From an uncultured Methanosarcinales archaeon (GTDB lineage Archaea > Nanobdellota > Nanobdellia > Woesearchaeales > GW2011-AR9): 37,577 bases of DNA. A program made the position numbers and the translations under genes. The stretch lies in NCBI GenBank assembly GCA_964542815.1, contig CAZIUU010000007.1, forward strand, positions 957-38,533, read 5' to 3'. Shown here in pieces: positions 4,106 through 31,960 of this stretch; within the stretch, counting starts at the first letter, position 1; every line of letters begins with the position of its first letter. A model generated the notes under the pieces. It was not told the DNA's origin and did no database searches. It saw only the letters and a list, made by a program, of their open reading frames with translations.

Positions 4106-4138
4106 AGACGATTTTGAAAAACCTATTCAAAATCGTCT
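4106..4138 (+). terminator. perfect 13-bp hairpin immediately after the stop of the 3554-4102 gene
   Basis: AGACGATTTTGAA (4106-4118), a 7-nt loop, then TTCAAAATCGTCT (4126-4138). It starts 4 nt after the TAG at 4100-4102. A terminator function is assumed, not shown. Confidence 0.3.
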
Positions 4139-4313: not shown

Positions 4314-4443
4314 AGTATTTGGTTAGCATCTTCGAAATCTCCGCTGTTGGTTTGAGAGCCGACGTTCTCCGTAAGAGACAACCCTCTTGTCGGCTAGATG
4401 AAAGAAGGGCATATATTTCGACCTGATGATCTAACCAAATACT
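4314..4443 (+). ncRNA. candidate structured RNA, copy 2 of the family
   Basis: Helices 4314-4326/4431-4443 (13 bp), 4328-4330/4428-4430, 4332-4338/4415-4421 (7 bp) and 4357-4363/4389-4395 (7 bp). It has the same CCUGAU bulge (4422-4427) and AGAUGAAA (4396-4403) as copy 1. It lies between convergent gene ends. A TATA-like AATATTT sits about 25 nt upstream. Confidence 0.45.
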
Positions 4444-4459
4444 TATTTGACATTAAAAT

Positions 4460-6085
4460 TTACTCCTCTTTTCTTAACAACAGTTCGGCTACTGCCGCGT
4501 AAGCCGGCCTGGCCACTAATACTCCAAATGAAATTCCTACGATAGTAGTAAATGCAAACCCTTTCAACATTCCTGCTCCCGCAAACCATAATGGAACCAT
4601 AGATGCTACACCCACCAGATATGCACCCATAATAATAAACATAGCATTCTTGATTCTAACTTTCCAATCCGTAGCCATTACTTCTCCGCGCAAAGTCTCA
4701 TCGGTAATAATAATAAGGTGGTCTACTGCCGTTCCGGCTACAATAATTATAGCAGCAATTGCCGCTAAGTCTAAATTCCATCCTACCATAGCAGCAAAGC
4801 CTAAAATCAGAATCATCTCAGAGATAATGGTGAGCACTATGGGTACGACAATCTTTACCCGGCGATATTTTACCAACACTACTCCACTAACTGCCAGCAC
4901 TGCTAAAAGACCCACTAACATCACATTGCTTAAGAATTCTTTTCCTAGTGAAGGAGAAATGGTATCCATCTTAACTACATCTAACTTGACCGGCAAGCTT
5001 CCAGTAATAATGATAGTTTGCAGGCGTTTCATGTTCTGCAAAGTAGTAGTTGCCGCTAACTGTTGGGTTGGCCCTGTGCCTGAACCGGAGATTTGAATTT
5101 CAGTAGCAGATTTGCCTTTTAATTCAGCGCCAATTTTCAGCCGATCCACTTCTTTATCATCTAGGAATAATACAATATCATCGCTCAAGTAATTCTCACC
5201 GCTGGTATCGCTTGAAACTACCGTTAACTTATTAGTTAAAGCTGCTTGCCTTTCTGCCGCTTCCGGGCTTAACGAAATAGAAAAGAAAAATCCGCAGGCA
5301 GAACCTTCTTTCACCGGAAAACATCCTTTTCGGGGATCAAGACCAGAACATTGCGCACTCCTGCATACATAAGTGATATCTTTCTTTCCACCAAAGAAAA
5401 CCGTTTCGTTTCCAATCTTGGCTTCAAACTTTCCCTGTGAGGCTAACAGATGTTTTACTTCTTCTTCCGTAACTCCGGCAATTTCAATCAAAATAAATTT
5501 CTCTCCGGATAAATCAGAAGCAGTTCTTACTACAATATCGCTTAATCCATATACATTTAAGCGCTGCTTTAAAGTATCTACGGTCATGTCTAAAGTATCC
5601 TGTGAAACTGCTTCAGATGGCTTTAACAATACTCTGGTTCCACCTTCTAGGTCTAATCCTTTTCTCAAGTTTGAGGAAGGAGCATCATACACTTTTAACC
5701 CCAATTCTGCCTGATAACTCCAAGAAGCATTGGGTAAAACTATATTTGGTAAAGCATCAGGCGTAATTAAATTATAACTGCTTTTGCTGGTATCAATTTT
5801 AACGGTGCGATTTGGGCCTATTTTTTCAATAGAAGCATAATAATCTTGAACTGTATTTATCTTCTCTCCATTGATAAACAATATTTTTTCCCGGGCTAAA
5901 GGGGCCAGCTTAGCTGCAGCGCTTTGCATTCCGGCATTAGATGCGGAAGAATTTGCGGCTACGCTTCGGATAGTTGCACCTTCATTTCCAAAAAAATGCG
6001 GTTGGATTGACCATACTGCCAGGATTAGCAATGTAAGTAATAAAATCACTCTCCAGCTGGTGAATATTTTTTTCCAGGGAATCAT
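4460..6085 (-). CDS. secD: protein-export membrane protein SecD
   Basis: 541 aa with an N-terminal TM, a large periplasmic-type loop and a C-terminal 5-6 TM bundle. It lies directly downstream of secF. Confidence 0.8.
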   Translation of the reverse strand: MIPWKKIFTSWRVILLLTLLILAVWSIQPHFFGNEGATIRSVAANSSASNAGMQSAAAKLAPLAREKILFINGEKINTVQDYYASIEKIGPNRTVKIDTSKSSYNLITPDALPNIVLPNASWSYQAELGLKVYDAPSSNLRKGLDLEGGTRVLLKPSEAVSQDTLDMTVDTLKQRLNVYGLSDIVVRTASDLSGEKFILIEIAGVTEEEVKHLLASQGKFEAKIGNETVFFGGKKDITYVCRSAQCSGLDPRKGCFPVKEGSACGFFFSISLSPEAAERQAALTNKLTVVSSDTSGENYLSDDIVLFLDDKEVDRLKIGAELKGKSATEIQISGSGTGPTQQLAATTTLQNMKRLQTIIITGSLPVKLDVVKMDTISPSLGKEFLSNVMLVGLLAVLAVSGVVLVKYRRVKIVVPIVLTIISEMILILGFAAMVGWNLDLAAIAAIIIVAGTAVDHLIIITDETLRGEVMATDWKVRIKNAMFIIMGAYLVGVASMVPLWFAGAGMLKGFAFTTIVGISFGVLVARPAYAAVAELLLRKEE

Positions 6086-9746: not shown

Positions 9747-11192
9747 TTAATTTTTCGGAACTAAAATGGCATAAGTGCAGTTTTTGAATGAAGAGGAGAA
9801 CTCAACGGCGTTTTCATTGTTGATGGTTTCTAATAGCCCCTTTTTGCGGCTATAGCAATAATTATCTTGCGGCGGGCAGGCTAAGTCGCAGTCGTTTACA
9901 AACAATAATTTGTATTTTCCTTTTTGCCTGGAATAAATGGTAGAAGCAAATTCCATCCCGTCTAAAGTGATAATGGGATTGTTTAAGAAGGACACAAAAG
10001 AAGGGTCTGAAGCTAAAATAAGAGCATTGCTGTTAATGTTGTTATCCTCCATTATTTGTATTATTTCTGTTTCAAACGTAGGTGGGCGTTCAAAGTGAAG
10101 GTTAAAAGGTACGGGTAAGATAATCAATATTCCGAATACAACCCAGAACGCAGCTAGTTTTAATATTCTCTTCTCCTGATTTAATTCATATAAGTGATTA
10201 ATGAAGTTGCCAATTATTAACGAAAGAAAAGGCAGAGCTAGCACCACATATCGAACTTCTTTGCGGGGCAGGTACCAAAAGTAAGCTAAAATTAATATGG
10301 CTGCCAATACAATGGTGCTTTTCCGTGGGTCATACCATTCTTTCCTTAAATAAAACAGGTATAATGCTGGAAAAGACAGCAGGTATACTGGATTTTTTAC
10401 AAAGAACCAATACAGATAATACCACCATTCTGAGTTGTATGCCCAAGTAGCAGTAGTGATAATCCAAGAACCGGAAGTGAACGGAAAAAAAATATCCTGA
10501 TAGAGGATATTGTTTAAGGCGAGATAAGGAATTACCGGGATCAAAAAACCAAATCCGAGATAGAATAATGAACTTAACTTTTTCAGTAACGGGCGGTGCA
10601 GTTGTTCTCTCAGCCGGTTTTTGGTTAAAAGTAGAGAGATGGCTACCGCAGCCAATAATATCCCCTGCGGAAATTTAGTTAAAAATGATAAAGCTATAAA
10701 TAATCCGCCCCAAAAATAATTCTTGGCAGAAGTTTCCTGAACTAAACAATAAATTCCAATTAATCCTAACAATATGGCTAACGGCTCAGTCAGGATTAGC
10801 CCGGTGAACATGATAAATACGGGAGAAAAGGCGAATATTATGGAAGAGATTATAGCTGTTCTTTTAGAGTAAACTTTATCAGCAATGTTATATAATAAAA
10901 TTATTGATGTCAATGAAAAGATTAAATCTAATATTTTTCCAACCCAAATTACATTAAATCCGGATTTCCAAGTCATTCCTAAGAGCAAAGGATGAATCAA
11001 CGGGCGGAACGGTTCCCACATTCCCATTTTTCCTTCCGAAAATAAGAATTTGCCCATTCCAATGTACACATGTGAATCCCACCACAAAGGGTAATCGACA
11101 GCTAGAAAAATTAACCTAATCACCAAAGCCAGGGTCATAATCGGCCACAGCGGCTGTTCAGAGAGCTTTGATAAGGTTTGTTGGATCTGCAT
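9747..11192 (-). CDS. GT-C fold glycosyltransferase (ArnT/PMT-like, polyprenyl-phosphate-sugar dependent)
   Basis: 481 aa with about 11 TM segments, a first-loop acidic motif (WWDSHVY) and a C-terminal soluble domain. Confidence 0.65.
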   Translation of the reverse strand: MQIQQTLSKLSEQPLWPIMTLALVIRLIFLAVDYPLWWDSHVYIGMGKFLFSEGKMGMWEPFRPLIHPLLLGMTWKSGFNVIWVGKILDLIFSLTSIILLYNIADKVYSKRTAIISSIIFAFSPVFIMFTGLILTEPLAILLGLIGIYCLVQETSAKNYFWGGLFIALSFLTKFPQGILLAAVAISLLLTKNRLREQLHRPLLKKLSSLFYLGFGFLIPVIPYLALNNILYQDIFFPFTSGSWIITTATWAYNSEWWYYLYWFFVKNPVYLLSFPALYLFYLRKEWYDPRKSTIVLAAILILAYFWYLPRKEVRYVVLALPFLSLIIGNFINHLYELNQEKRILKLAAFWVVFGILIILPVPFNLHFERPPTFETEIIQIMEDNNINSNALILASDPSFVSFLNNPIITLDGMEFASTIYSRQKGKYKLLFVNDCDLACPPQDNYCYSRKKGLLETINNENAVEFSSSFKNCTYAILVPKN

Positions 11193-11997: not shown

Positions 11998-13307
11998 TTA
12001 ACTTTTTTACGATAGGAGAACTCAGCTAGTGAGGTTAGCAAAATTATTCCTTTGACCATATAGTAAAATAGCGCATAAGGTATCAATGGAACCCACCCTG
12101 CTCTTAACATTTTCTCATGAGCATTGCGGTGAGCCTGGTAAAAGAAAAATAATCCAATCAGCATTAGTGATATCATCAGGAACCCAATTCTAAAATCGGA
12201 TAATAAAAAGCTCATAAAGCTTAACTTTAATTTTAAATTTAGGATATATGGGAGCAGGTTGAATTTTATCAACATTAAATCGCTGATGGTTCTAGATGTT
12301 GGGAGCAGGAAGAGGTATATCGCCAGAATTATGCCGGTGACAACCAATATAAATCCCAATACGTTTTTTACCATCTGCATCATCCCAAAGTCACCGTATT
12401 TTTTATTAGCAACTAATTTGCGATATTGGTGCAGGCAGGTTATCCCTCCCACATACCATCTTCTTCGTTGGTTGTAAAATGGCTTTAATTTATGTGGTGC
12501 AACAGTGAATACGTAACCCTCGGGGCATTGTTTTATTTGGTATTGGTGTTGCTGCACGCGATAGGCGATCTCCTGGTCTTCAGTGATGTTTTTCTCGTCG
12601 AACCCTCCCAGTTTTTGAATAATACTGGTTCGATATAACGAGAAAGGTACGGGAGCAACATACAACGAGTCCAGCTGGCTGGTAAGGCGGGAAATGAAGA
12701 TGATTACAATATATTCCAGCCATTGCAGCCTTTGAAGCAGGTTCTTCGGATTATGAACTTTCATCGCGGGGGTTATTATGGCTAATTTAGGATTATTTTC
12801 ACGTTCGTAAATTGCCAACATCTTTTTTAGGGTAGATTTATCTACAAATGAATCAGCATCGAGGCAGGCAAAAAATTCTCCTTGCGCTTGTTTTAAAGCG
12901 CGGTTTAATGAAGCTCCTTTCCCGCAATTTGGATGCGAGATCAATTTGAATTGAGGCTTGTTTCGGATATATTGTTGTATTACTGATTTGGTGCGGTCAG
13001 TAGAGCCGTCATTTATTACAATTACTTCCAGCTTGTTTTTAGGATAATCTAAGTTGGAGAGCGATTCTAGGGTTTTAGTGATAGTGGATTCTTCGTTACA
13101 TGCTGGAACAAGCACTGATACCAGTGGGAAATGGTCGAGTGTTGGAGTAATTTCTCTCTTTTGGCGGAAAGCTTTTCTACGATCAAAATAAACTAATAGT
13201 AAGAATATAGAAAAGTACAGTGAAATTGCGTATGCAATCCATAAGATGAGATTTACTATTGTATTCATAAAAACTTGCCTCTTTAGTATGTGCATATGCA
13301 CGTACAC
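11988..13307 (-). CDS. processive family-2 glycosyltransferase (PgaC/NodC/cellulose-synthase-like)
   Basis: Motifs VINDGSTD, LDADS, TED (NITEDQE) and QRRRW, plus N- and C-terminal TM segments. The probable true start is the Met14 ATG at 13268 (MNTIVNL...). Confidence 0.8.
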   Translation of the reverse strand: MYVHMHILKRQVFMNTIVNLILWIAYAISLYFSIFLLLVYFDRRKAFRQKREITPTLDHFPLVSVLVPACNEESTITKTLESLSNLDYPKNKLEVIVINDGSTDRTKSVIQQYIRNKPQFKLISHPNCGKGASLNRALKQAQGEFFACLDADSFVDKSTLKKMLAIYERENNPKLAIITPAMKVHNPKNLLQRLQWLEYIVIIFISRLTSQLDSLYVAPVPFSLYRTSIIQKLGGFDEKNITEDQEIAYRVQQHQYQIKQCPEGYVFTVAPHKLKPFYNQRRRWYVGGITCLHQYRKLVANKKYGDFGMMQMVKNVLGFILVVTGIILAIYLFLLPTSRTISDLMLIKFNLLPYILNLKLKLSFMSFLLSDFRIGFLMISLMLIGLFFFYQAHRNAHEKMLRAGWVPLIPYALFYYMVKGIILLTSLAEFSYRKKVKWK

Positions 13308-13547
13308 TCTTTAAGCAGCTGAAACAATTTATGGGGGTTATTATTCTGACCAGTTCTGCTTGTACATCCACACTTCAGCCTGTTGGGAGGAATGCACCAT
13401 TTTAAATCTTTCGTTTTTTAATACTAAAGCTAACCCTTGCTGAACTGCTGGTTCTTGTTTCATCTGAGGAGACATATATATTGTTGAAATGTGGTTTTGC
13501 TCCAATAGTGGGAAAGTATCGTTAGTGTAAGATAAGATTGAAATGGC

Positions 13548-14852
13548 TTAAGGTAAATCTATTGCTTCAGCAGTTGGTAGATGGAACGGAAATAAAGGCT
13601 GTTTCCCAGCAAAGTAAGTTAGATAATAACTGTTTTCTGGAGAGGAGAATATTTTTCCATCATCAGGAATGTTTTCTTTGATCCATGTTAATGTTTCTAC
13701 CTCATTTTGGTCTGGGCCAATTTCAGTAACCCGATTGAGGTAAGTAAGAGTGGAAAATAGTATCCCTAAAATTACCACTAAAATGGTGAATTTCTTAATG
13801 GTCTCCAGGTTCCATTGGCGTTCAAAGAGTTTTATGAATCCAACTGCTGAGAATAGTAAGATGATAATTGCGAGGGGGAAGATAAAATTAGTATGTAAGA
13901 GGTAGGCTGGAATCACCAACGGCAAAAATAAGTAGGTGAAATAATATCTTTTTTCTTTCCATAGATGAAACAACCCTCCGAGAGCCAACAGCAGGGCAAA
14001 TAAAGAAATCCCGCTGGTCCCGCCCAGATCTGAAAGCAGATCCTGAATTACGCTCTCGGTTTGGAAAGGGCCCAACTGCAAAGGGACATCAAATAAAAAG
14101 AAATGCGCTAATGCCACAATGGAGGTAACTGCTACAATGGTAAACATTAGGTTTCGATTCGTTTCTTTCTCTTTTTCAGTACGATAATGAAAAAAAGTGA
14201 GCAAAGCTAATATCACCAACAATGAAGAGAATAAGTCGATGGAGGTTGCCAGCATGAGTGGAAGCATAGATAAGTAATTCCATAACTTATGGCTGAGCGT
14301 GAGCAGTAGTATCCCTAATAATAATAGTATTAATAACCCCGAGTAAGCTGAAATAGTGGTGAATGAGAAGATAAATACCGCGGAAGAAATTAATAAAGCC
14401 AAAAATAAAAAAGTAAAGTGTTCCGAGATGCCTAATCGCTGGGCCACGTTTAGGATTAGAAATACGAAGAGAAGAGCTAGGATTATGGGCAGTAAAGCAA
14501 GAATGCCCATAGGTAAAACTGAATCCAGCCGGTTTAACGGGAGGTAATAATAATTTTTCCAGCTGATTTGTTGCGCTTCCGAAAGATGATAATAACTCTC
14601 CGGCCCTTTAAGCAGGGGCTGGTTTTGCCAGAGGTTAGATAGGAAAGGGATTCCTAATACCAGCAAGGTTAGGCATAGAAGATAAAGATATTTGTGTTTT
14701 ACCAGATGATTGAGAACTTCATCGTATTCTACTTTATCAAATAACTGTTCGTATTTTCTCAGGTGATGTTTCAGGCTATCTTTAATTGTACTTTTGGAAG
14801 TTTCTGCTGACAGTTCAAGTGCCACTTTATTCTTTTCTTTTTCTTGGGTCAT
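13548..14852 (-). CDS. STT3/AglB-like polytopic membrane protein lacking the WWDYG motif
   Basis: 434 aa. PESYYHL sits in the first loop (compare AglB DPxSYYH). The C-terminal WIKENIPDDGKIFSSPENSYYLTYFAGK segment aligns by eye to the STT3 WL..NTP....V.SWWDYGY..y region. Confidence 0.5.
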   Translation of the reverse strand: MTQEKEKNKVALELSAETSKSTIKDSLKHHLRKYEQLFDKVEYDEVLNHLVKHKYLYLLCLTLLVLGIPFLSNLWQNQPLLKGPESYYHLSEAQQISWKNYYYLPLNRLDSVLPMGILALLPIILALLFVFLILNVAQRLGISEHFTFLFLALLISSAVFIFSFTTISAYSGLLILLLLGILLLTLSHKLWNYLSMLPLMLATSIDLFSSLLVILALLTFFHYRTEKEKETNRNLMFTIVAVTSIVALAHFFLFDVPLQLGPFQTESVIQDLLSDLGGTSGISLFALLLALGGLFHLWKEKRYYFTYLFLPLVIPAYLLHTNFIFPLAIIILLFSAVGFIKLFERQWNLETIKKFTILVVILGILFSTLTYLNRVTEIGPDQNEVETLTWIKENIPDDGKIFSSPENSYYLTYFAGKQPLFPFHLPTAEAIDLP

Positions 14853-14853
14853 T

Positions 14854-16353
14854 TTAGATTCCTTCCGGTGCAGTTTCTGAGGAGATTAGAGTACAGCTGA
14901 TATGGTAGATTTTCGTTTCTTCTTTGTATTCCTTCTGGAAACAGCCTTCTCCTAAGTAATTAAATCCATGTAGATCATATTTTAGTTGGGCGGCAGGGGT
15001 CAATACCATAAATTGTATGTTATATTTGTCGAATATGCTTAAAGCTTGAGTCTGAAATTTAGTGGTGTAAGCGTTGTTTAAATCGTTGAATCTGGTTTCG
15101 ATGTTGTCAATTAAAGTAAATTGGGTGTCCATGAAATTGCGGCGCTGGGAGTAATAGGTTACTAAATGCCCTTCCTCAAGGGTGGAGAGTACTCCAACAT
15201 CTTTTGGAGTGTTGTCTTTGAGCCATTTGAATGCAGTTATCTCTTTAGTTGAAGGGGTGCTTTGGTTTAAAGCAGTGCCCAAAGTAAGGGGAATGATGGT
15301 AATGGTAAGCAGAATCAACACTACCGGAAGCAGATATCTTTTTAATGAGGCCAGTTTTGTTTTTTCTATGTACATGGCCAAGTCTTGATAAAATAAGGCG
15401 AATAGTATGGCTAAGGTTATTCCAAAGAAAGAGAGGGAGAGATTGAAGCGCAATAATCGGAACCAGGCTAAGATAGTAGTAGCTATTACTAAACTAATCA
15501 ATAGAAACATTTTTCTACTTTTTACTTGGAATAAAGATTGATATACCACCCATATCCCAGTGAGGAAAGGTATTACGCTCACTAATACGATGGCATTCGG
15601 TATAGACAAGTGCGGAAAGTATTCTAAAATTATCTTTGGAGGGATATTTTGCCAGATGAAGCTTATGCCCGAGGAGATGAGCACTTTTTTGAAGAACAGG
15701 AATTGGAGCCAGATGAACATGAATAATGAAAATAACATCACTTCTTTCTCTTCTGGCTTAATCTGCCGCTCTTCCAGGAAGGATAAGAGCAGGTAGATGC
15801 CGAAGCCCATGATTATTAATGATGCGGCAGAACTGGTGAGGGAGAGGAGTATGAACGAAGTTAGATAGAGGTAAAGATATTTTTTTTCGGAGAGGTTAAG
15901 ATAACAATAGATAGTAAAGAAGATTAACGGAAGGAATAATGTTTCAGGGACAAAGTTGTTGGGAGTAGCTAGTACTGGTAAGAAGCCGGCGATGAAAGCA
16001 GAGATTAATGAAGAGGTATCGTGATTGGTTATTTTCTTGCTGATGAGATAAACGATAATTGTTAATAGTGCCATTAATATGTTGGGTATGAGTTTAGCGG
16101 CTAGTTCTAATGGTAATATTAAGTTAAAGAAAGCCATGAAATAATGAAAGAAAGGCAGGAAAACGAGATCTCTGCCCCCATAAGATAAAGTATCATGATA
16201 TAATGGCAGTCCGGTTTCGGTTATCTGCTGCACTTGCCGCAGGTTAAAGTAGGATTCATAGGTGAAGTTAGGGATAAGAAAAGCGAGGAGCAACCTTACG
16301 GTTAGAGTTAATAAGAATATTCCAATGAGCCAGTACTGAGTCCTTTTTTTCAT
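14854..16353 (-). CDS. STT3/AglB-like polytopic membrane protein lacking the WWDYG motif
   Basis: 499 aa. YESYFNLRQ sits in the first loop. KWLKDNTPKDVGVLSTLEEGHLVTYYSQRRNFMDT resembles PglB/STT3 ...VTWWDYGYPVRYYS....VD, with TLEEGH in place of WWDYGY. Confidence 0.55.
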   Translation of the reverse strand: MKKRTQYWLIGIFLLTLTVRLLLAFLIPNFTYESYFNLRQVQQITETGLPLYHDTLSYGGRDLVFLPFFHYFMAFFNLILPLELAAKLIPNILMALLTIIVYLISKKITNHDTSSLISAFIAGFLPVLATPNNFVPETLFLPLIFFTIYCYLNLSEKKYLYLYLTSFILLSLTSSAASLIIMGFGIYLLLSFLEERQIKPEEKEVMLFSLFMFIWLQFLFFKKVLISSGISFIWQNIPPKIILEYFPHLSIPNAIVLVSVIPFLTGIWVVYQSLFQVKSRKMFLLISLVIATTILAWFRLLRFNLSLSFFGITLAILFALFYQDLAMYIEKTKLASLKRYLLPVVLILLTITIIPLTLGTALNQSTPSTKEITAFKWLKDNTPKDVGVLSTLEEGHLVTYYSQRRNFMDTQFTLIDNIETRFNDLNNAYTTKFQTQALSIFDKYNIQFMVLTPAAQLKYDLHGFNYLGEGCFQKEYKEETKIYHISCTLISSETAPEGI

Positions 16354-17083: not shown

Positions 17084-17295
17084 GTTGTTAGATGGGCTTT
17101 TTACTGTCTTATAAGCTTATATTTACTAGAATAGTTACGATACTGCGAGGCGTATAGCGGTGAAGAGTAATTTTTAGTGGCGTTCAATCAAGCGAACACG
17201 GGGAGTAACTTAAAGAGTATCAAAGGTGGCTTTATTTCCGAAAGATTTATTAAATTATACCTTTAGTTATTGTCTCTTAAGAGGTGGGAGTTACC

Positions 17296-18336
17296 ATGAA
17301 AACAATTCAGATGTTATTTTTCATAACAGTCGTTATTGTGATTTATGGCTGTGCACCACAGACTTTAGAAGGGCTCGATTCACCTTCAAAAATAGCCTCG
17401 CCACCCTTAAATCCAGAAACAACCTCCGGCGATTTCCTGACTTATGAGAATTTTGATTATGGGGTTAAGATTGGCTATCCCTCTGATTGGGAGCAGAAAG
17501 AAACTGAAGCGGTGATTATTGCATTTGTGCCGCCAAAAACCAACGCGTCTGACACTTTTCAGGAGAATCTCGGTTTGACCATGAATGATTTGGCTGGGCA
17601 GGGCTTGACATTACAAAAATATAATGAGATTGTTATTGAGCAATTGAAACAAACATTCTCAGATATAAATATTATCGAATCGGGCTCAACCGTATTGTCT
17701 AAGAATCCAGCGCATAGGGTGGTATTTACAGCATCCAATTTGAAATTCATGCAGGTTTGGACAATTAAAAATGATTTAGCGTATGTGTGGAGTTATGCTG
17801 CAGCAGAAAACTCATATTCAGATTACCTTAACAATATACAAAAAATGCTTGATTCTTTTGAGATAACAAGAAATATTATGGCGCAGGCTGAAGATAAAGT
17901 AACAGAAGCCAAGGCAGAGAAGGAAACAGAAGAGGAAAAAATAGGAGAAACAGCACCGATTCATTTAGCCAATTCACCATTTGTAGGAAGTTGGAGAGTA
18001 TATTCTGATAGAATATTCTACGGCCTCGGCGGCGCAGGAGCGCTTGGTATCCCAATCACCAGAAATTTAGAGCTTTTTAAAGATGGGGCCTGGAAATTTG
18101 GCGACTCAAAAGGCACATGGGCTATAACTGAAATAACCAGTGAAGACTGGAGCAGATGGGATATTAATCCTTATGGGCCAACAAGAAAAATCGTGTTGGA
18201 TAAGTGGAATAATGCCGTTGCTGATGGGCCAATTGAAGAAGATAATAGCCAGATAGACTTTATCTGGGTAATATACAGTATTGAGCCTCCGCTGGTGCAG
18301 AACGCGGGGACAGTTTGGCTAAAGTTTGGGCCTTAA
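17296..18336 (+). CDS. lipobox-containing secreted protein, PsbP/DcrB (DUF1795)-like N-domain
   Basis: The ATG at 17296 is preceded by GAGGTGGGAG; the ORF track starts at the GTG at 17284. The signal plus lipobox is MKTIQMLFFITVVIVIYGC. The YPSDWEQKE... domain is paralogous to the next gene. Confidence 0.6.
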   Translation: MKTIQMLFFITVVIVIYGCAPQTLEGLDSPSKIASPPLNPETTSGDFLTYENFDYGVKIGYPSDWEQKETEAVIIAFVPPKTNASDTFQENLGLTMNDLAGQGLTLQKYNEIVIEQLKQTFSDINIIESGSTVLSKNPAHRVVFTASNLKFMQVWTIKNDLAYVWSYAAAENSYSDYLNNIQKMLDSFEITRNIMAQAEDKVTEAKAEKETEEEKIGETAPIHLANSPFVGSWRVYSDRIFYGLGGAGALGIPITRNLELFKDGAWKFGDSKGTWAITEITSEDWSRWDINPYGPTRKIVLDKWNNAVADGPIEEDNSQIDFIWVIYSIEPPLVQNAGTVWLKFGP

Positions 18337-18364
18337 ATAAATTATTGAAAGGGGGTGTTTCATA

Positions 18365-18904
18365 ATGAAGAAAAATTTTCCGATAATCATTGTTGAAATA
18401 CTTCTAGTCCTATTTATTAGTGGTTGTGCGCAGAAGCTTTCTGAGGATAATTCCGGCGATTTTACCTCCTTCAAAAACGACTTTTACACCATCGATTACC
18501 CTTCCAGCTGGGAAGTGGAGGAGCATGAGGCTTTTGTTTACTTTAGGCCGCTGCTGGTGGGTGATGATGCTGAAACTCAGGGAAACGTCGTCATTTATGT
18601 CGCGCCAGCAGAATCTGAAACCCAGACAATTACTGAGTTTTTTCAAGCGTCTGTAAGAGTATTAGTTGAGACCGCATATCCTGAATTTACATTTATTGAA
18701 TACAAAGAGGAAAAGCTTTCTTCTACTCCCGCTTACAGGATTGTTTATGCCAAAGGTAAAGGCTCTGAAATAATACAATATTTGCAGGTTTTTACACTTA
18801 AAAAGGGCAATACCTATGTCATAACTTATGCTGCCCCTCCAGAAACCTACAAAAAAGATGTGAGTAATATTGAAAAAATAATCCGTTCCTTTAGGATAAA
18901 ATGA
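18365..18904 (+). CDS. lipobox-containing secreted protein, PsbP/DcrB (DUF1795)-like
   Basis: The signal plus lipobox is MKKNFPIIIVEILLVLFISGC. YPSSWEVEE...YVITYAAPPETY is paralogous to the 17296-18336 product. Confidence 0.65.
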   Translation: MKKNFPIIIVEILLVLFISGCAQKLSEDNSGDFTSFKNDFYTIDYPSSWEVEEHEAFVYFRPLLVGDDAETQGNVVIYVAPAESETQTITEFFQASVRVLVETAYPEFTFIEYKEEKLSSTPAYRIVYAKGKGSEIIQYLQVFTLKKGNTYVITYAAPPETYKKDVSNIEKIIRSFRIK

Positions 18905-21900
18905 CTTCAAAAAATAAACTCGAACTTTTGGGTATGATTACATTAAATTTTATGCTTCTTTTCGCAGCCAATGCTTATGCAGCGGCTACATTGACCGTCG
19001 AAGCGCAGGGCGATGGTTATGTTGATTCTTACCCTTCAGGAATCCTCTGTGGCGCAGCCTGCGTTGAAACATATGACACCGGCATTGCGATTACATTGAC
19101 TGCGCATTTAAATGAAGGGGCAACATTCTCCGGATGGACTGGTTGTGATCAACCGAGCGGAACAACCTGCACTATGAATTTGGATTCTGACAAGACGGTT
19201 ACTGCCACATTTTCCGGTGAAGTGAAATCTGATTATAATCTGCGCGTCTACAGGACAGGAGGCTTGGGGGTTGTTCAATCAGACCCTTTTGGGATTTACT
19301 GCGGTTCAATCTGCTCTTATGACGAGGCGAAGTTTGAAGCCGGTTCAACCGTCATAGTGACTGCTTCTGCCCAGAGTGGTTACATGTTTAACGGCTGGAG
19401 CGGCGACTGCTCTGGAACTTCACCAACTTGTACAGTCACGATGGGCAGCTCGAAAACGGTTACGGCCTCATTTAGAAGCGGGACTTCTTCTGATGGCAGT
19501 GCCACAGCAACTCCATCTTTAACCATACAAAAAAAAGGGGAAGGGACTGTAAAAAGCGGCGATAAGAAAATAAACTGCGGAACTTCTTGTTCGTCCGCCT
19601 ATAATCCGGGTGACTCAGTTACTCTTACTGCAACAACATTAGTTGCCGGAACAACGTTCTTAGGGTGGAGCGGTGCATGTTCTGGTGCAAAAAATACCTG
19701 CATCGTTACTATTGATGCTGCAAAAACTGTTACTGCTAATTTCGGCGCTCTAACTTTTCCGCTTACAGTAAGTGTGACGGGAATAAGCGGAGGAACCGGC
19801 TCAATAGCTGACTCCAAATATATTAACTGCAGCATAGGAACCTGCTCTGCAAATATTTCATTTGGTACTTCAGTAACTCTTTCTCCCTCCGCCGGAACGT
19901 ATTCATATTTCTCGGGATTTGGCGGCTCCTGCTCAGGAAACTCCTGCACTGTTGTAATTAATTCTGACAAAAAAGTCAGCGCCTCGTTTACTATCCTGAG
20001 CTATGCGCTTGCAGTTGCAAAATCTGGAACTGGTGTCGGAGAAGTTGCATCTTCGGACAATATAATCAACTGCGGCACATCCTGCACCTCAAAATATAAT
20101 CATGGCTCATCGATAACTTTGACTGCCAACCCCGATGCTATCTCAACTTTTACTGGATGGGGTGGGGGCGGCTGTACTGGCATCGGCAGCTGCACTGTAA
20201 CTATGGACTCTGCAAAAACCATTACTGCAGCTTTTTCTAGGATATATAGGGCGACGGTTGAAAAGAAAGGAGAGGAAACCGGAATCGTAAAATCAGCCGA
20301 TGGTACAATAAACTGCGGCAATGTTTGTACTGCAACTTTACTTGAAGGTACTGAAGTCGCTCTTGAGGCCAGCCAATCGGGAATTTTTATTCCGGACGGA
20401 TTTGAAGGGCCGTGCAATTGCACGGCCCTGCAACAATCATGGCAAAGACCGGATTTGCACTCTCACCATGAATTATGATAAAAAAGTTGTTGCTAAATTC
20501 GTGCCACTAACTCAGGAAATAACTGTTGCAAAAACCGGGAAAGGAAAGGTTGAATCAACGGATGCACAAAAGCAAATAGATTGCGGTGCAAAATGCTCTG
20601 CCAAATTCAGGGAAGGAAGCATAATCGCTTTTAAGGCGACTCCTGACAAAGGCTCAAGGTTTTCCCAATGGAATGGTGGATGCTCGGGGCGCAAGTCAAC
20701 CTGTGATTATGTAGTCAAAGTTGCCGAAGAGGGAAAAACTAAAAACATTGGTGCAGTTTTTGAGGAAGCGCCGGTTTTAACGGTCGTCAATAAGTATGGT
20801 AATGTGATAACCAGCAGTGTTTCACAGTTTGAACTTGACAGTCAAGGCGAGGCTGCTGCAGATATTGCTAAAGAAAAAATAAGTTGTGGCGAGAAGTCAT
20901 CAAAACAAAACCGGCAAACTGACTGCTCTATAGAATATAAAGCATCTGGATTTTTTGTTCGACTCTCGCTTAAGCCTAATTCCGGTGGTGCAAAATGGAT
21001 CGGTTGCAGCAATCCTCTTGTCACTGATACTTGTGACGTATATATTGACCGGAGCAAGACGGTAGAAGTTACTATGGTTCCTGACGGAGAGAGAGAATTG
21101 GTAAAACAGGCAATTTGGGAATTATATGGAATGAAAAATCCATCCTTGGACTCCTATATTACAACTGAAAACAACCCCCCATTTAAGCGGACGCTTGAGG
21201 ATTTGCAGGCTGGGAAAATGGGGCATACTATTATTGAGATTGAGGGGTGGATTGCTCAGAATGGGCAATGGTATCTTAATGAGGGGGGAATAAACAGAAT
21301 AACTGATGAATGGGAAAAGGGAACTGCAAAGCAGGTATTGCTTGAAGTATTTGCAGCAGAAATTGCGGGGTATCCAACTCTTGTAGATTCCCTTACAGAC
21401 GAAAGCCAGAAACCATTTCAGACAGCATTAGTTGATCTAAAAGCTGGCAGAGATGAAGGCGAAGGAAAAGAGGGATTAAAAAAATGGATAAGTCAGCCGC
21501 AGAACAGACAGTGGTATTTGGATGCAACTGGGATAAGTACACAGATAACCGCTATTGAGCAAGCAAAGCTGGAGGAGGAAAAAAGCGCCAAAGCGCCGAG
21601 TATCACTAGCATCTCTCCTGACAACGGAAAAATCGGCGGTCGACCTTTAATTGTTGGAAAATTTTATGATGTCCAGCTTGTTACCCTTAATGATAATCCT
21701 GTTTCTTATACTGTAGATTTCCAAAAGAGCAGCATAACCATCAATAATATCCGGTGGGGCACTGACCCTTACGGTGTAGAAGTTAATGTGCCGGGAATAG
21801 TTAAAGTGTATACAAATTGGGGAACGGCTACTTCAAAACTAATTTCGCCTTCCGGACCAATCTATAAGAATGCTGTTGGAAAAGAAGAGGGATGTTTTCC

Positions 21901-22414
21901 TGGGGTGGGCAGCGGCTGTGATGGAGGAGGGGCTGCTGTACAGGCAATTTTAAGAGGAATGTTTGGAAAGCCAATTGGGTGTGATGTACAAAACGATGGT
22001 TCACTGGTGTGCTCTATTGCAGCCGGAAGCATAGAGCATGACAACTGCTGTGTCCGTTTTCCAAATGGGAAATGGTGCGGCGGTCCAGGACTCGACGGTG
22101 AAGGCGGGCAAGATGCATGGGAACTTAACCATGACGGCCATTGTTCCTATGAATGGGATCACGCATTCTGGGATGTGATGGGGGGAAATGGGTGGAATCA
22201 GCGCTATGAGCGAGGCCAGAAATTTGACTTAACACCATCTGGCGGAAGCAGAAACAATGTGTATGTCCTGGGAGAAGCTGTAAGCAGCCTGTCCTACTGC
22301 GCTCCAAGCGGTCACGTGATGCGTGAAGCTGATGATGCACCTTTCTGCTGTTCTAAGAAGATTAAGTATCCTGGTTGGTTTGGGTGGGGTAGCGATAAGC
22401 CCAGATGTGTATAA
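18901..22414 (+). pseudogene. giant secreted repeat protein (8 InlB-B-repeat-like modules, tandem helical module, beta-sandwich-like module, Cys-rich C-terminal domain), frame interrupted at about 20410-20428
   Basis: Two overlapping ORFs (18901-20478 and 20321-22414) lie in frames offset by +1. The ~80-aa repeat signature (..C....G..V.L.A....F.GW.G.C.G...C.V.M...K.V.A.F) runs continuously across the break. The N-terminal signal is MTSKNKLELLGMITLNFMLLFAANAYA. The ATG overlaps the upstream stop (ATGA). Confidence 0.6.
20407..20428. repeat. perfect 22-nt palindrome at the frame break
   Basis: GGGCCGTGCAATTGCACGGCCC equals its own reverse complement. Removing 16 nt (for example 20410-20425) restores the frame and the repeat consensus FEGPCNNHGKDRICTLTM. 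Confidence 0.9.
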
Positions 22415-31011: not shown

Positions 31012-31461
31012 TTAAGAGTTCACTATCGAGAATAATTTTTCCATTCGTTCTACAAATCTGTTCGCCGCACTTAGTGCTTCTCCAGCTTCTTCTTTTGTAA
31101 CGTAGAAATCAGTGCCGTATTGGTCATCATGACGCAATCCACGGTAATGATCAAGCAACAGAACCCATTCTTCCTCCAACTGTTTTTTCTTAACATAATT
31201 CTCTTCGAGAAATCTTGCTATACAGTAATGGCTCTTCTCCCGAAAACCATCCCGAAATAGAATAGACCGAGAAGCATGAAACATGGCAAGATACGATGAA
31301 ATTGCTGAAGAGTTGAGTGCTCCGGCATTTAGGTTCTTTTCCGCTTCATTAAGCCATTTGTAAGCGGTCTTTAAACTATTTTCTGCCTCCTTTCTGGATA
31401 TAGGAATCTTGCGCAATAGCCCATCTTCCAAGCATTCTTTATAGGTTTTCAAGTTTTTCAC
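31012..31461 (-). CDS. HEPN-domain protein (toxin-like partner of MNT)
   Basis: 149 aa and all-helical, with an R-x-x-x-H...Y segment (HYRGLRHDDQYG). It overlaps the upstream nucleotidyltransferase gene by 23 nt. Confidence 0.7.
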   Translation of the reverse strand: MKNLKTYKECLEDGLLRKIPISRKEAENSLKTAYKWLNEAEKNLNAGALNSSAISSYLAMFHASRSILFRDGFREKSHYCIARFLEENYVKKKQLEEEWVLLLDHYRGLRHDDQYGTDFYVTKEEAGEALSAANRFVERMEKLFSIVNS

Positions 31462-31960
31462 CGTAGATTGTTATTGAACTGAAGATTAATGAATGATAAA
31501 ATAAAGGGTTTTCTTCTTTTATTAAATTAAATTTATCTTTATTCAGGAATAATGGTTTTACTTTTGGACATATTTTCTTTAATTCTTGACTGAGAGAGGC
31601 TAAGTTCTGGCTTTTGTTGATAAATACATAAATATCTAGATCAGATTCTTCAGTATCTTCTCCTTTTGCTGCACTTCCATAGATTCCTACCGATAATGTT
31701 TCGGGGTACTTCTTAAACATTTTTGGAGGGATTATCTGTAGGTTCAAAAATATCTTTAAAGCTTTTGTATTTGGGTGAGAATGATTTATCTTACAATTCT
31801 TGGTAATACTTTCTTTTTTGAGAAGTGCGAGATATTTTGATATCAATCCTTTGCTTATTTTTAATTTTCGAGAAATATTACTAACACTCAATTTTTCCTT
31901 TTTGTAAATTACTTCCTGTAGAAGCTTTATCCTCTCTGTTGAAGATAATAATTTGTGCAT
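31439..31960 (-). CDS. wHTH-fused minimal nucleotidyltransferase (MNT)
   Basis: The N-terminal LSVSNISRKLKISKGLISKYL is HTH-like. The GIYGSAAKGEDTEESDLDIYVF segment matches the GS-x10-DxD polymerase-beta-type motif. Confidence 0.75.
   Translation of the reverse strand: MHKLLSSTERIKLLQEVIYKKEKLSVSNISRKLKISKGLISKYLALLKKESITKNCKINHSHPNTKALKIFLNLQIIPPKMFKKYPETLSVGIYGSAAKGEDTEESDLDIYVFINKSQNLASLSQELKKICPKVKPLFLNKDKFNLIKEENPLFYHSLIFSSITIYGEKLENL

Follow-up and report, generated by a model that had tools for sequence, protein, structure and literature searches.

A templated 16-nucleotide insertion forms a perfect palindrome and splits a secreted repeat-protein gene in a contig of a DPANN archaeon

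The split gene and its palindrome

The DNA analyzed here (the window) is a stretch of 37,577 nucleotides (nt) from contig CAZIUU010000007.1 of assembly GCA_964542815.1, deposited as an uncultured Methanosarcinales archaeon and placed by GTDB in the Woesearchaeales (GW2011-AR9). It is ordinary chromosome of a small DPANN archaeon, in which the gene of a repeat-rich secreted protein is split into two open reading frames (ORFs) by 16 inserted bases, most of them an inverted copy of the bases immediately before them. The following features lie at the break:

18901 to 20478, plus strand: ORF1, the 5' fragment; it opens with a signal peptide and runs through five and a half repeats of the InlB-B type into 23 residues out of frame, ending at a TGA stop.
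20321 to 22414, plus strand, +1 frame: ORF2, the 3' fragment, with the rest of repeat 6, repeats 7 and 8, a helical domain, an immunoglobulin (Ig)-like domain and a Cys-rich tail.
20406 to 20429, no strand assigned: a 24-nt perfect palindrome with halves AGGGCCGTGCAA and TTGCACGGCCCT, which as a single strand gives a 10-bp stem with a 4-nt loop.

ORF1 (525 amino acids, aa) and ORF2 (697 aa, or 648 aa from the ATG at 20468 chosen by the gene caller) overlap by 155 nt across the palindrome, in frames that differ by +1. When 16 nt were deleted in silico, a single ORF of 1165 aa was obtained. The mended protein starts with a signal peptide (…FAANAYA/AAT), followed by a Cys-patterned repeat of approximately 82 residues in seven clear copies and a degenerate one. 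It matched Pfam family PF18998 (Flg_new_2, divergent InlB B-repeat) over five stretches (E = 2.4e-46, 156 bits, cut-off 23.6), and seven repeats could be aligned in tandem. Given that 16 equals 15 + 1, the frame shifts within repeat 6, after …GFEGPCN; the mended repeat 6 matches the consensus G(W/F)xGxC…C(T)x(T)(M)…K.V.A.F, while the frame as read does not. The sequence-only reading of this DNA, in which an insertion of 16 nt was said to split the gene and its deletion to restore both frame and repeat consensus, was thus borne out on these points.

The structure predicted for the C-terminal 437 residues comprised a confident helical domain (predicted local distance difference test above 90), an Ig-like sandwich and a low-confidence Cys-rich tail. 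A fold search on the C-terminal region recognized the generic Ig-like sandwich alone, and a sequence search of these domains against solved structures gave no match. The most conserved part of the family, with many invariant columns, falls within the C-terminal 660 residues, which in the window can be produced from an internal ATG only, without signal peptide. A 525-aa product (502 native N-terminal residues plus the 23-residue nonsense tail) could still be made and exported. Since the conserved C-terminal 660 residues are severed from the signal peptide, the insertion is most likely a null allele, with the function of the protein presumably lost. The 525-aa and 648-aa half-proteins occurred once in a collection of 15 billion proteins, on the deposited NCBI contig.

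The sequence GGGCCGTGCAATTGCACGGCCC (20407-20428) is exactly self-complementary, as had been noticed before, but the full perfect palindrome extends one base further on each side and is therefore 24 nt rather than 22 nt long (AGGGCCGTGCAATTGCACGGCCCT, 20406-20429). With one mismatch allowed, its arms grow to 16 nt each (20402-20417 and 20418-20433). No other perfect palindrome in the window exceeds 12 nt; in 300 first-order Markov shuffles of the window, a 24-nt palindrome never arose and one of 22 nt arose in three. The folding energy of the 44 nt around it was -15.6 kcal/mol as DNA and -24.3 kcal/mol as RNA (z of approximately -5.3). No tandem or simple repeat was found at the insertion site.

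Neither a terminator nor a mobile repeat accounts for the palindrome. Its flanks (gaa and tgcaac) have no T-run and it lies inside an archaeal ORF, so it does not have the make-up of an intrinsic terminator. The 20-nt core GGCCGTGCAATTGCACGGCC was found identical in 45 metagenome contigs (L014 to L058), all of them A-run/hairpin/T-run sites in roughly a dozen unrelated bacterial contexts with a GC content of 34-72%, while a search of viral contigs returned 0 matches. Those bacterial terminators share the core with the archaeal site but, unlike it, have flanking A- and T-runs, from which their intergenic position was deduced. The 45 matches appear to be convergent terminator stems of the bidirectional type, reached independently in a small sequence space and not homologous to the palindrome. 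A mobile or iterated palindrome (of the kind of repetitive extragenic palindromes, miniature inverted-repeat transposable elements or Rickettsia palindromic elements) was rejected: there is one copy in the window, with no second match to the pattern even at up to 3 mismatches; no perfect palindrome of at least 14 nt with its sequence was present in the orthologous and sibling loci L001 to L013; and the 45 matches are unrelated terminators.

Sibling contigs and orthologues without the insertion

Four groundwater-metagenome runs of one study (X1 to X4) contain the genome of the window, and their Logan contigs were compared with it. In each of the independent runs X1, X2 and X3 (word depth 24, 19 and 14), one contig crosses the site, leaves out 16 bases at 20413 and carries A instead of C at 20438; the site sequence in these contigs is GGGCCGTGCAACAAT, without the 16 nt (TTGCACGGCCCTGCAA). 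Two site-crossing contigs were fetched (L001 and L002). They read TTTGAAGGGCCGTGCAACAATAATGGC where the window reads TTTGAAGGGCCGTGCAA-TTGCACGGCCCTGCAA-CAATCATGGC, and over 4.3 kb the 16-nt insertion and the substitution at 20438 were the sole two differences from the window. The sibling proteins are intact (1148 aa, with the start lost at the contig end, and 1165 aa). Two features were defined by this comparison:

20418 to 20433, plus strand: the 16 inserted bases TTGCACGGCCCTGCAA, for which placements from 20413-20428 to 20418-20433 are equivalent; absent from L001, L002 and X1.
20438, plus strand: substitution, C in the window and A in X1-X3 (His versus Asn), 5 nt 3' of the insertion, at a position that varies in relatives (CAG, GGG).

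Identity between the X1-X3 contigs and the window was otherwise at least 99.97%. Across all 37.6 kb, approximately 10 substitutions (at 12649, seven in 13522-13584, at 16350 and at 20438) and no other fixed indel set them apart from it. Run X4 was perfectly identical to the window wherever covered, at a depth of 2-4x, and had no contig over 20303-20440. In searches for other carriers, the 24-nt flank pattern had no match in the genome and metagenome collections searched, and the window-specific alleles at 13490-13620 matched no public run. Apparent joints and loose ends near 20256-20275 and 20440 were seed matches of approximately 20 nt to a more abundant foreign contig; they were gone on narrower re-alignment and were regarded as noise. 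The sibling contigs also bear on the placement of the insertion. Their ancestral codon is CCG, which is reproduced exactly by removing 20417-20432 or 20418-20433, while removal of 20410-20425 gives the synonymous CCC; of the two placements that had been taken as equivalent from the sequence alone (20410-20425 and 20417-20432), only the second restores the ancestral sequence exactly.

Orthologues of the mended gene (30-69% identity) were found in metagenome-assembled genomes (MAGs) labelled Micrarchaeota, Iainarchaeum, Nanoarchaeia and Woesearchaeota. The loci L059 (77% identical; GAAGGGCCATGCAACAATGGG) and L005 (up to 69% identity; GAAGGTCCATGCAGCAATCAG) are uninterrupted at the insertion site, and eight more distant orthologous loci are likewise open across it. 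Every orthologue forms one ORF, of 1049-1175 codons where no contig end truncates it, so that the comparison proposed in the sequence-only reading gave a uniform answer, namely that relatives do not share the insertion. The ancestral state was in this way established independently from siblings (L001, L002, X1) and from outgroups (L059, L005 and the other orthologues). On these alignments, the 16-nt insertion is derived and private to the deposited contig, since the sibling contigs lack it and the orthologues are uninterrupted.

This distribution bears directly on a programmed +1 ribosomal frameshift, in which the hairpin would stall ribosomes and a full-length protein with five extra residues would be made. 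A stable RNA hairpin (-24.3 kcal/mol) does lie within the 155-nt overlap of the frames. However, neither the near-identical strains nor any of the orthologues have the insertion, so that a frameshift is not conserved; the hairpin sits at the shift point and not downstream of it, no slippery motif was seen on reading the sequence, and the product would gain two extra Cys in a disulfide-patterned repeat. Recoding, already ranked last among the explanations offered from the sequence alone, was rejected on account of the near-identical strains and orthologues that lack the insertion, and we give it practically no weight.

Origin of the insertion

The event was reconstructed by an exhaustive four-point search, in which the window was written as a prefix of the ancestor, the reverse complement of any ancestral stretch and a suffix of the ancestor. 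From L001 to the window there were exactly two solutions, equivalent to each other, with a reverse-complement copy of 11 or 12 nt and resumption 5 or 4 nt upstream. One switch to the complementary strand and back therefore regenerates the sequence of the window, in agreement with the earlier proposal that the preceding bases were copied in inverted form by an event of the fold-back or template-switch type. For 11 inserted bases to match the reverse complement of their neighbours by chance, the probability is approximately 4^-11. The two parts of the solution are:

20406 to 20417, plus strand: template of the inverted copy (AGGGCCGTGCAA), whose reverse complement gives the first 11-12 inserted bases.
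20429 to 20433, plus strand: second copy of TGCAA, the first being at 20413-20417; together they enclose the novel bases as a direct repeat of 5 nt, in the contexts CCGTGCAA and CCCTGCAA (7/8 positions).

In the proposed sequence of steps, a polymerase would have copied the plus strand forward to …AGGGCCGTGCAA (…GTGCAA, the end of CCGTGCAA), made a U-turn onto the complementary strand and copied 11-12 nt back (TTGCACGGCCC[T]). It would then have rejoined the original template at a point 4-5 nt upstream of its departure, re-copied (T)GCAA and resumed synthesis at (T)GCAACAAT. The return may have been helped by local GGCC/GGCC self-complementarity, as the new 3' end GGCCCT can pair with GGCCGT at 5/6 positions. 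The 24-nt perfect palindrome would thus have been created in one step, by a single short-range template switch (an inverted duplication). On this reading the second TGCAA is the stretch re-copied after the return switch, and it is a possible substrate for precise deletion. A weak quasipalindrome existed at the site beforehand (TTGAAGGG and CCGTGCAA, 6/8 complementary). No extra point mutation is needed for CCG versus CCC, because C at 20428 complements G at 20407 (CCC complements GGG at 20407-20409). The C/A difference at 20438 could not be derived from the same switch, since no solution appeared in the exhaustive search; it may be a strain marker or the product of collateral error-prone synthesis.

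Single template switches are known to create perfect stems de novo, and insertions inside one half of a stem are statistically enriched in RNA genes (PMC8794818). The present case resembles such short-range mutations (four-point, quasipalindrome-associated) in that the derived sequence adds to the ancestral one the reverse complement of 11-12 neighbouring nt, gained in one step (PMC8794818), and in that a perfect stem arose de novo at an already weak quasipalindrome. Classic quasipalindrome mutations, in contrast, perfect an imperfect inverted repeat without large change in length, while here there was a net insertion of 16 nt and a U-turn with zero spacer. Moreover, the site is a protein-coding repeat of an archaeon and not an RNA gene or a reporter.

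In our judgment the probable explanation, if not a secure one, is that a short-range template switch produced a genuine null mutation, recent and specific to the strain; we infer that the allele is present in cells rather than only in a library, and that it arose at replication or repair. The window carries non-majority alleles with respect to X1-X3 at 12649, 13522-13584, 16350 and 20438, which marks it as a haplotype of its own; a single-nucleotide polymorphism (SNP) private to that haplotype lies 5 nt from the insertion and is linked to it. Two strand switches just 12 nt apart are typical of short-range switching in vivo and not of long inverted amplification chimeras. There were 0 differences between the window and the sibling contigs in the approximately 2 kb of ORF2 downstream of the insertion; with no further mutation there, the null allele, if real, must be extremely young.

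Several observations weigh against this explanation, and part of them speak for an artefact produced in vitro or during assembly, that is, strand switching in library polymerase chain reaction (PCR) or during amplification of the whole genome, or a local error in assembly or polishing, with the gene of the organism intact. The allele rests on a single deposited assembly and is found on one contig only; words spanning the insertion were found in no public run and in no contig other than the deposited one. X1-X3 hold the same population at 14-24x and contain the intact allele only, while X4, the sole run matching the window perfectly elsewhere, lacks a contig over 20303-20440. The undecayed ORF2 is a pattern that an artefact would give as well. 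Finally, the first switch is an exact U-turn that lacks microhomology, and models of replication give such a step no particular preference. In vitro, strand-displacing polymerases typically leave junctions of the U-turn kind. The artefact would have entered the consensus through low coverage of the haplotype of the window.

Against an artefact, however, a de Bruijn assembler cannot invent novel 21-31-mers, so that reads must hold them. The insertion is also the sole length difference in 37.6 kb, so that the assembly as a whole is not rich in chimeras. It is linked, moreover, to the private SNP, and its haplotype departs from the X1-X3 majority at other loci too. Chimeras of multiple displacement amplification (MDA) or library PCR share with it an inverted junction from polymerase strand switching, but they normally stay inverted over long stretches and are of low frequency per site, whereas this one returns after 12 nt and is the form of the assembly consensus. 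Adapter remnants in the X1-X3 contigs, which we take to be Nextera (tagmentation) adapter sequence, do not point to MDA, with the proviso that they belong to the X1-X3 libraries and not to the sample of the window itself. On balance an artefact seems unlikely, while retaining an appreciable chance.

The sequence would be fitted equally by hairpin-intermediate break repair or a transposon-excision footprint. A double-strand break after …GTGCAA would have been capped by a hairpin; opening of this hairpin away from its centre would have left 11-12 palindromic P nucleotides before the ends were re-joined, with TGCAA as a former target-site duplication of 4-5 bp. The order of left flank, its own reverse complement, (T)GCAA and right flank fits exactly, as in P-nucleotide additions and hairpin-type excision footprints with their short direct duplication on the far side, and from a covalently closed hairpin tip one would expect a U-turn with zero spacer. 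The tract of 11-12 nt is nevertheless far longer than typical P nucleotides, no transposase, integrase, recombinase or other mobile-element gene was found in the window, and no X1-X4 contig had an element occupying the site. To our knowledge, transposition with flank hairpins belongs to eukaryotic enzymes of the hAT, Transib and RAG types and not to archaea, and we know of no hairpin-type P-nucleotide mechanism documented in archaea. We consider this origin improbable.

The presence of both states in populations at least 99.97% identical (ON in X1-X3, OFF in the deposited contig, contigs being prone to drop rare variants) could also reflect a reversible switch. Template-switch insertion at the quasipalindrome would turn the surface protein off, hairpin-promoted precise deletion between the TGCAA repeats would turn it on again, and the palindrome would be gained and lost repeatedly in a population holding expressed and silent states. 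A palindrome flanked by such TGCAA repeats would be prone to precise loss, as known from palindrome deletion in bacteria. The palindrome with its 5-nt (7/8) direct repeat would be a plausible hot spot, either deletion product restores Pro-Cys, and a secreted repeat protein is the usual kind of phase-variable gene. On the other hand, the forward step is a complex two-switch event, and no device that would make it frequent was found, whether a simple-sequence tract at the site or an invertible segment with a recombinase (invertase) in the window. Each of the three runs has a single unbranched contig with the ON allele, no relative shows any variant at the site, and a single mutation explains the data equally well. 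The phase-variation-like switch suggested by the sequence-only reading thus found no supporting machinery, and we hold it to be highly improbable.

Of the four explanations first offered, two stand: an inactivating mutation that is genuine, and a chimera from amplification or assembly. The insertion is an ordinary one-off instance of a known mutation class, or a laboratory artefact, and not a new mechanism.

Genomic setting and significance

Genes in the window encode RadB/Rad51-like protein, CofD, SecD/SecF, ribosomal protein S2, dUTPase, glycosyltransferases and a HEPN/nucleotidyltransferase pair. The closest neighbour of the broken gene is:

18365 to 18904, plus strand: PsbP-like gene, directly upstream, with a 4-nt overlap.

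As in the window, a PsbP-like gene precedes the InlB-B-repeat orthologue in all four loci whose neighbours were inspected (L003, L004, L005 and L060). More generally, one or two PsbP-like genes (PF18933) lie directly 5' of the InlB-B-repeat gene across DPANN lineages, often with a 4-nt overlap (17284-18904 with 18901-22414 in the window). This conserved adjacency suggests that the two products are a functional pair of secreted proteins. In the related archaeal MAG locus L003, a 26-nt perfect palindrome (CGTTAAGGAACAGCTGTTCCTTAACG, 5040-5065) was observed in the intergenic space between AhpC-like and ParA-like genes; it may be an operator or a terminator.

Other polymorphisms were observed among the runs. 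The seven substitutions of 13522-13584 fall within 62 nt, across the stop codon of a minus-strand gene (13548-14852), which ends in …AIDLP* in the window and continues as …AIDLTQ… in the other allele. A second template switch was considered for this cluster and rejected, as no inverted repeat lies there in either allele; it is ordinary polymorphism between strains and resembles a tract exchanged by recombination. Ten further substitutions, all within 34 nt (10209-10242), in a PMT_2-type glycosyltransferase gene (9747-11192, minus strand), were particular to run X1, while X2-X4 have the allele of the window. A single-base deletion variant in an intergenic A-run at 4122 accounted for a quarter to two thirds of the contig depth of X1-X3, or roughly one half.

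On the minus strand, at 31012-31960, overlapping genes for a HEPN-domain protein (149 aa) and a Pol-beta-type nucleotidyltransferase (173 aa) have the usual layout of a HEPN/MNT (minimal nucleotidyltransferase) toxin-antitoxin system; depth falls and contigs break over this region in X1-X3. In addition, two intergenic paralogous elements of approximately 130 nt (2125-2255 and 4315-4440; 79% column identity) share the pattern TAGCATCTTCrAAATC … GAGAGCCG-[variable hairpin, compensatory changes]-CGGCTCTAGATGAAA … ATTTyGACCTGATGAT, with inverted outer arms and GATGA/CTGA (k-turn or C/D-box-like) motifs. Their contig depth is 2.5-5x that of the flanks, with many loose ends, which points to a multi-copy family. 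Neither element had an Rfam or tRNA match, and both are candidates for a structured RNA or a small repeat of the archaeon.

For annotation, the deposited 525-aa and 648-aa "proteins" should be read with caution, as they are halves of one gene. A reversible switch, if true, would mean phase variation in an ultra-small archaeon without a repeat tract or recombinase, and the locus would matter more only if both alleles cycled within one population. As a template-switch mutation, the reading favoured here, it would be one more natural case in which a single switch yields both a perfect hairpin and a gene knockout; with the ancestral allele kept in sister populations, it would offer a clean teaching case in a conserved secreted protein of DPANN archaea.

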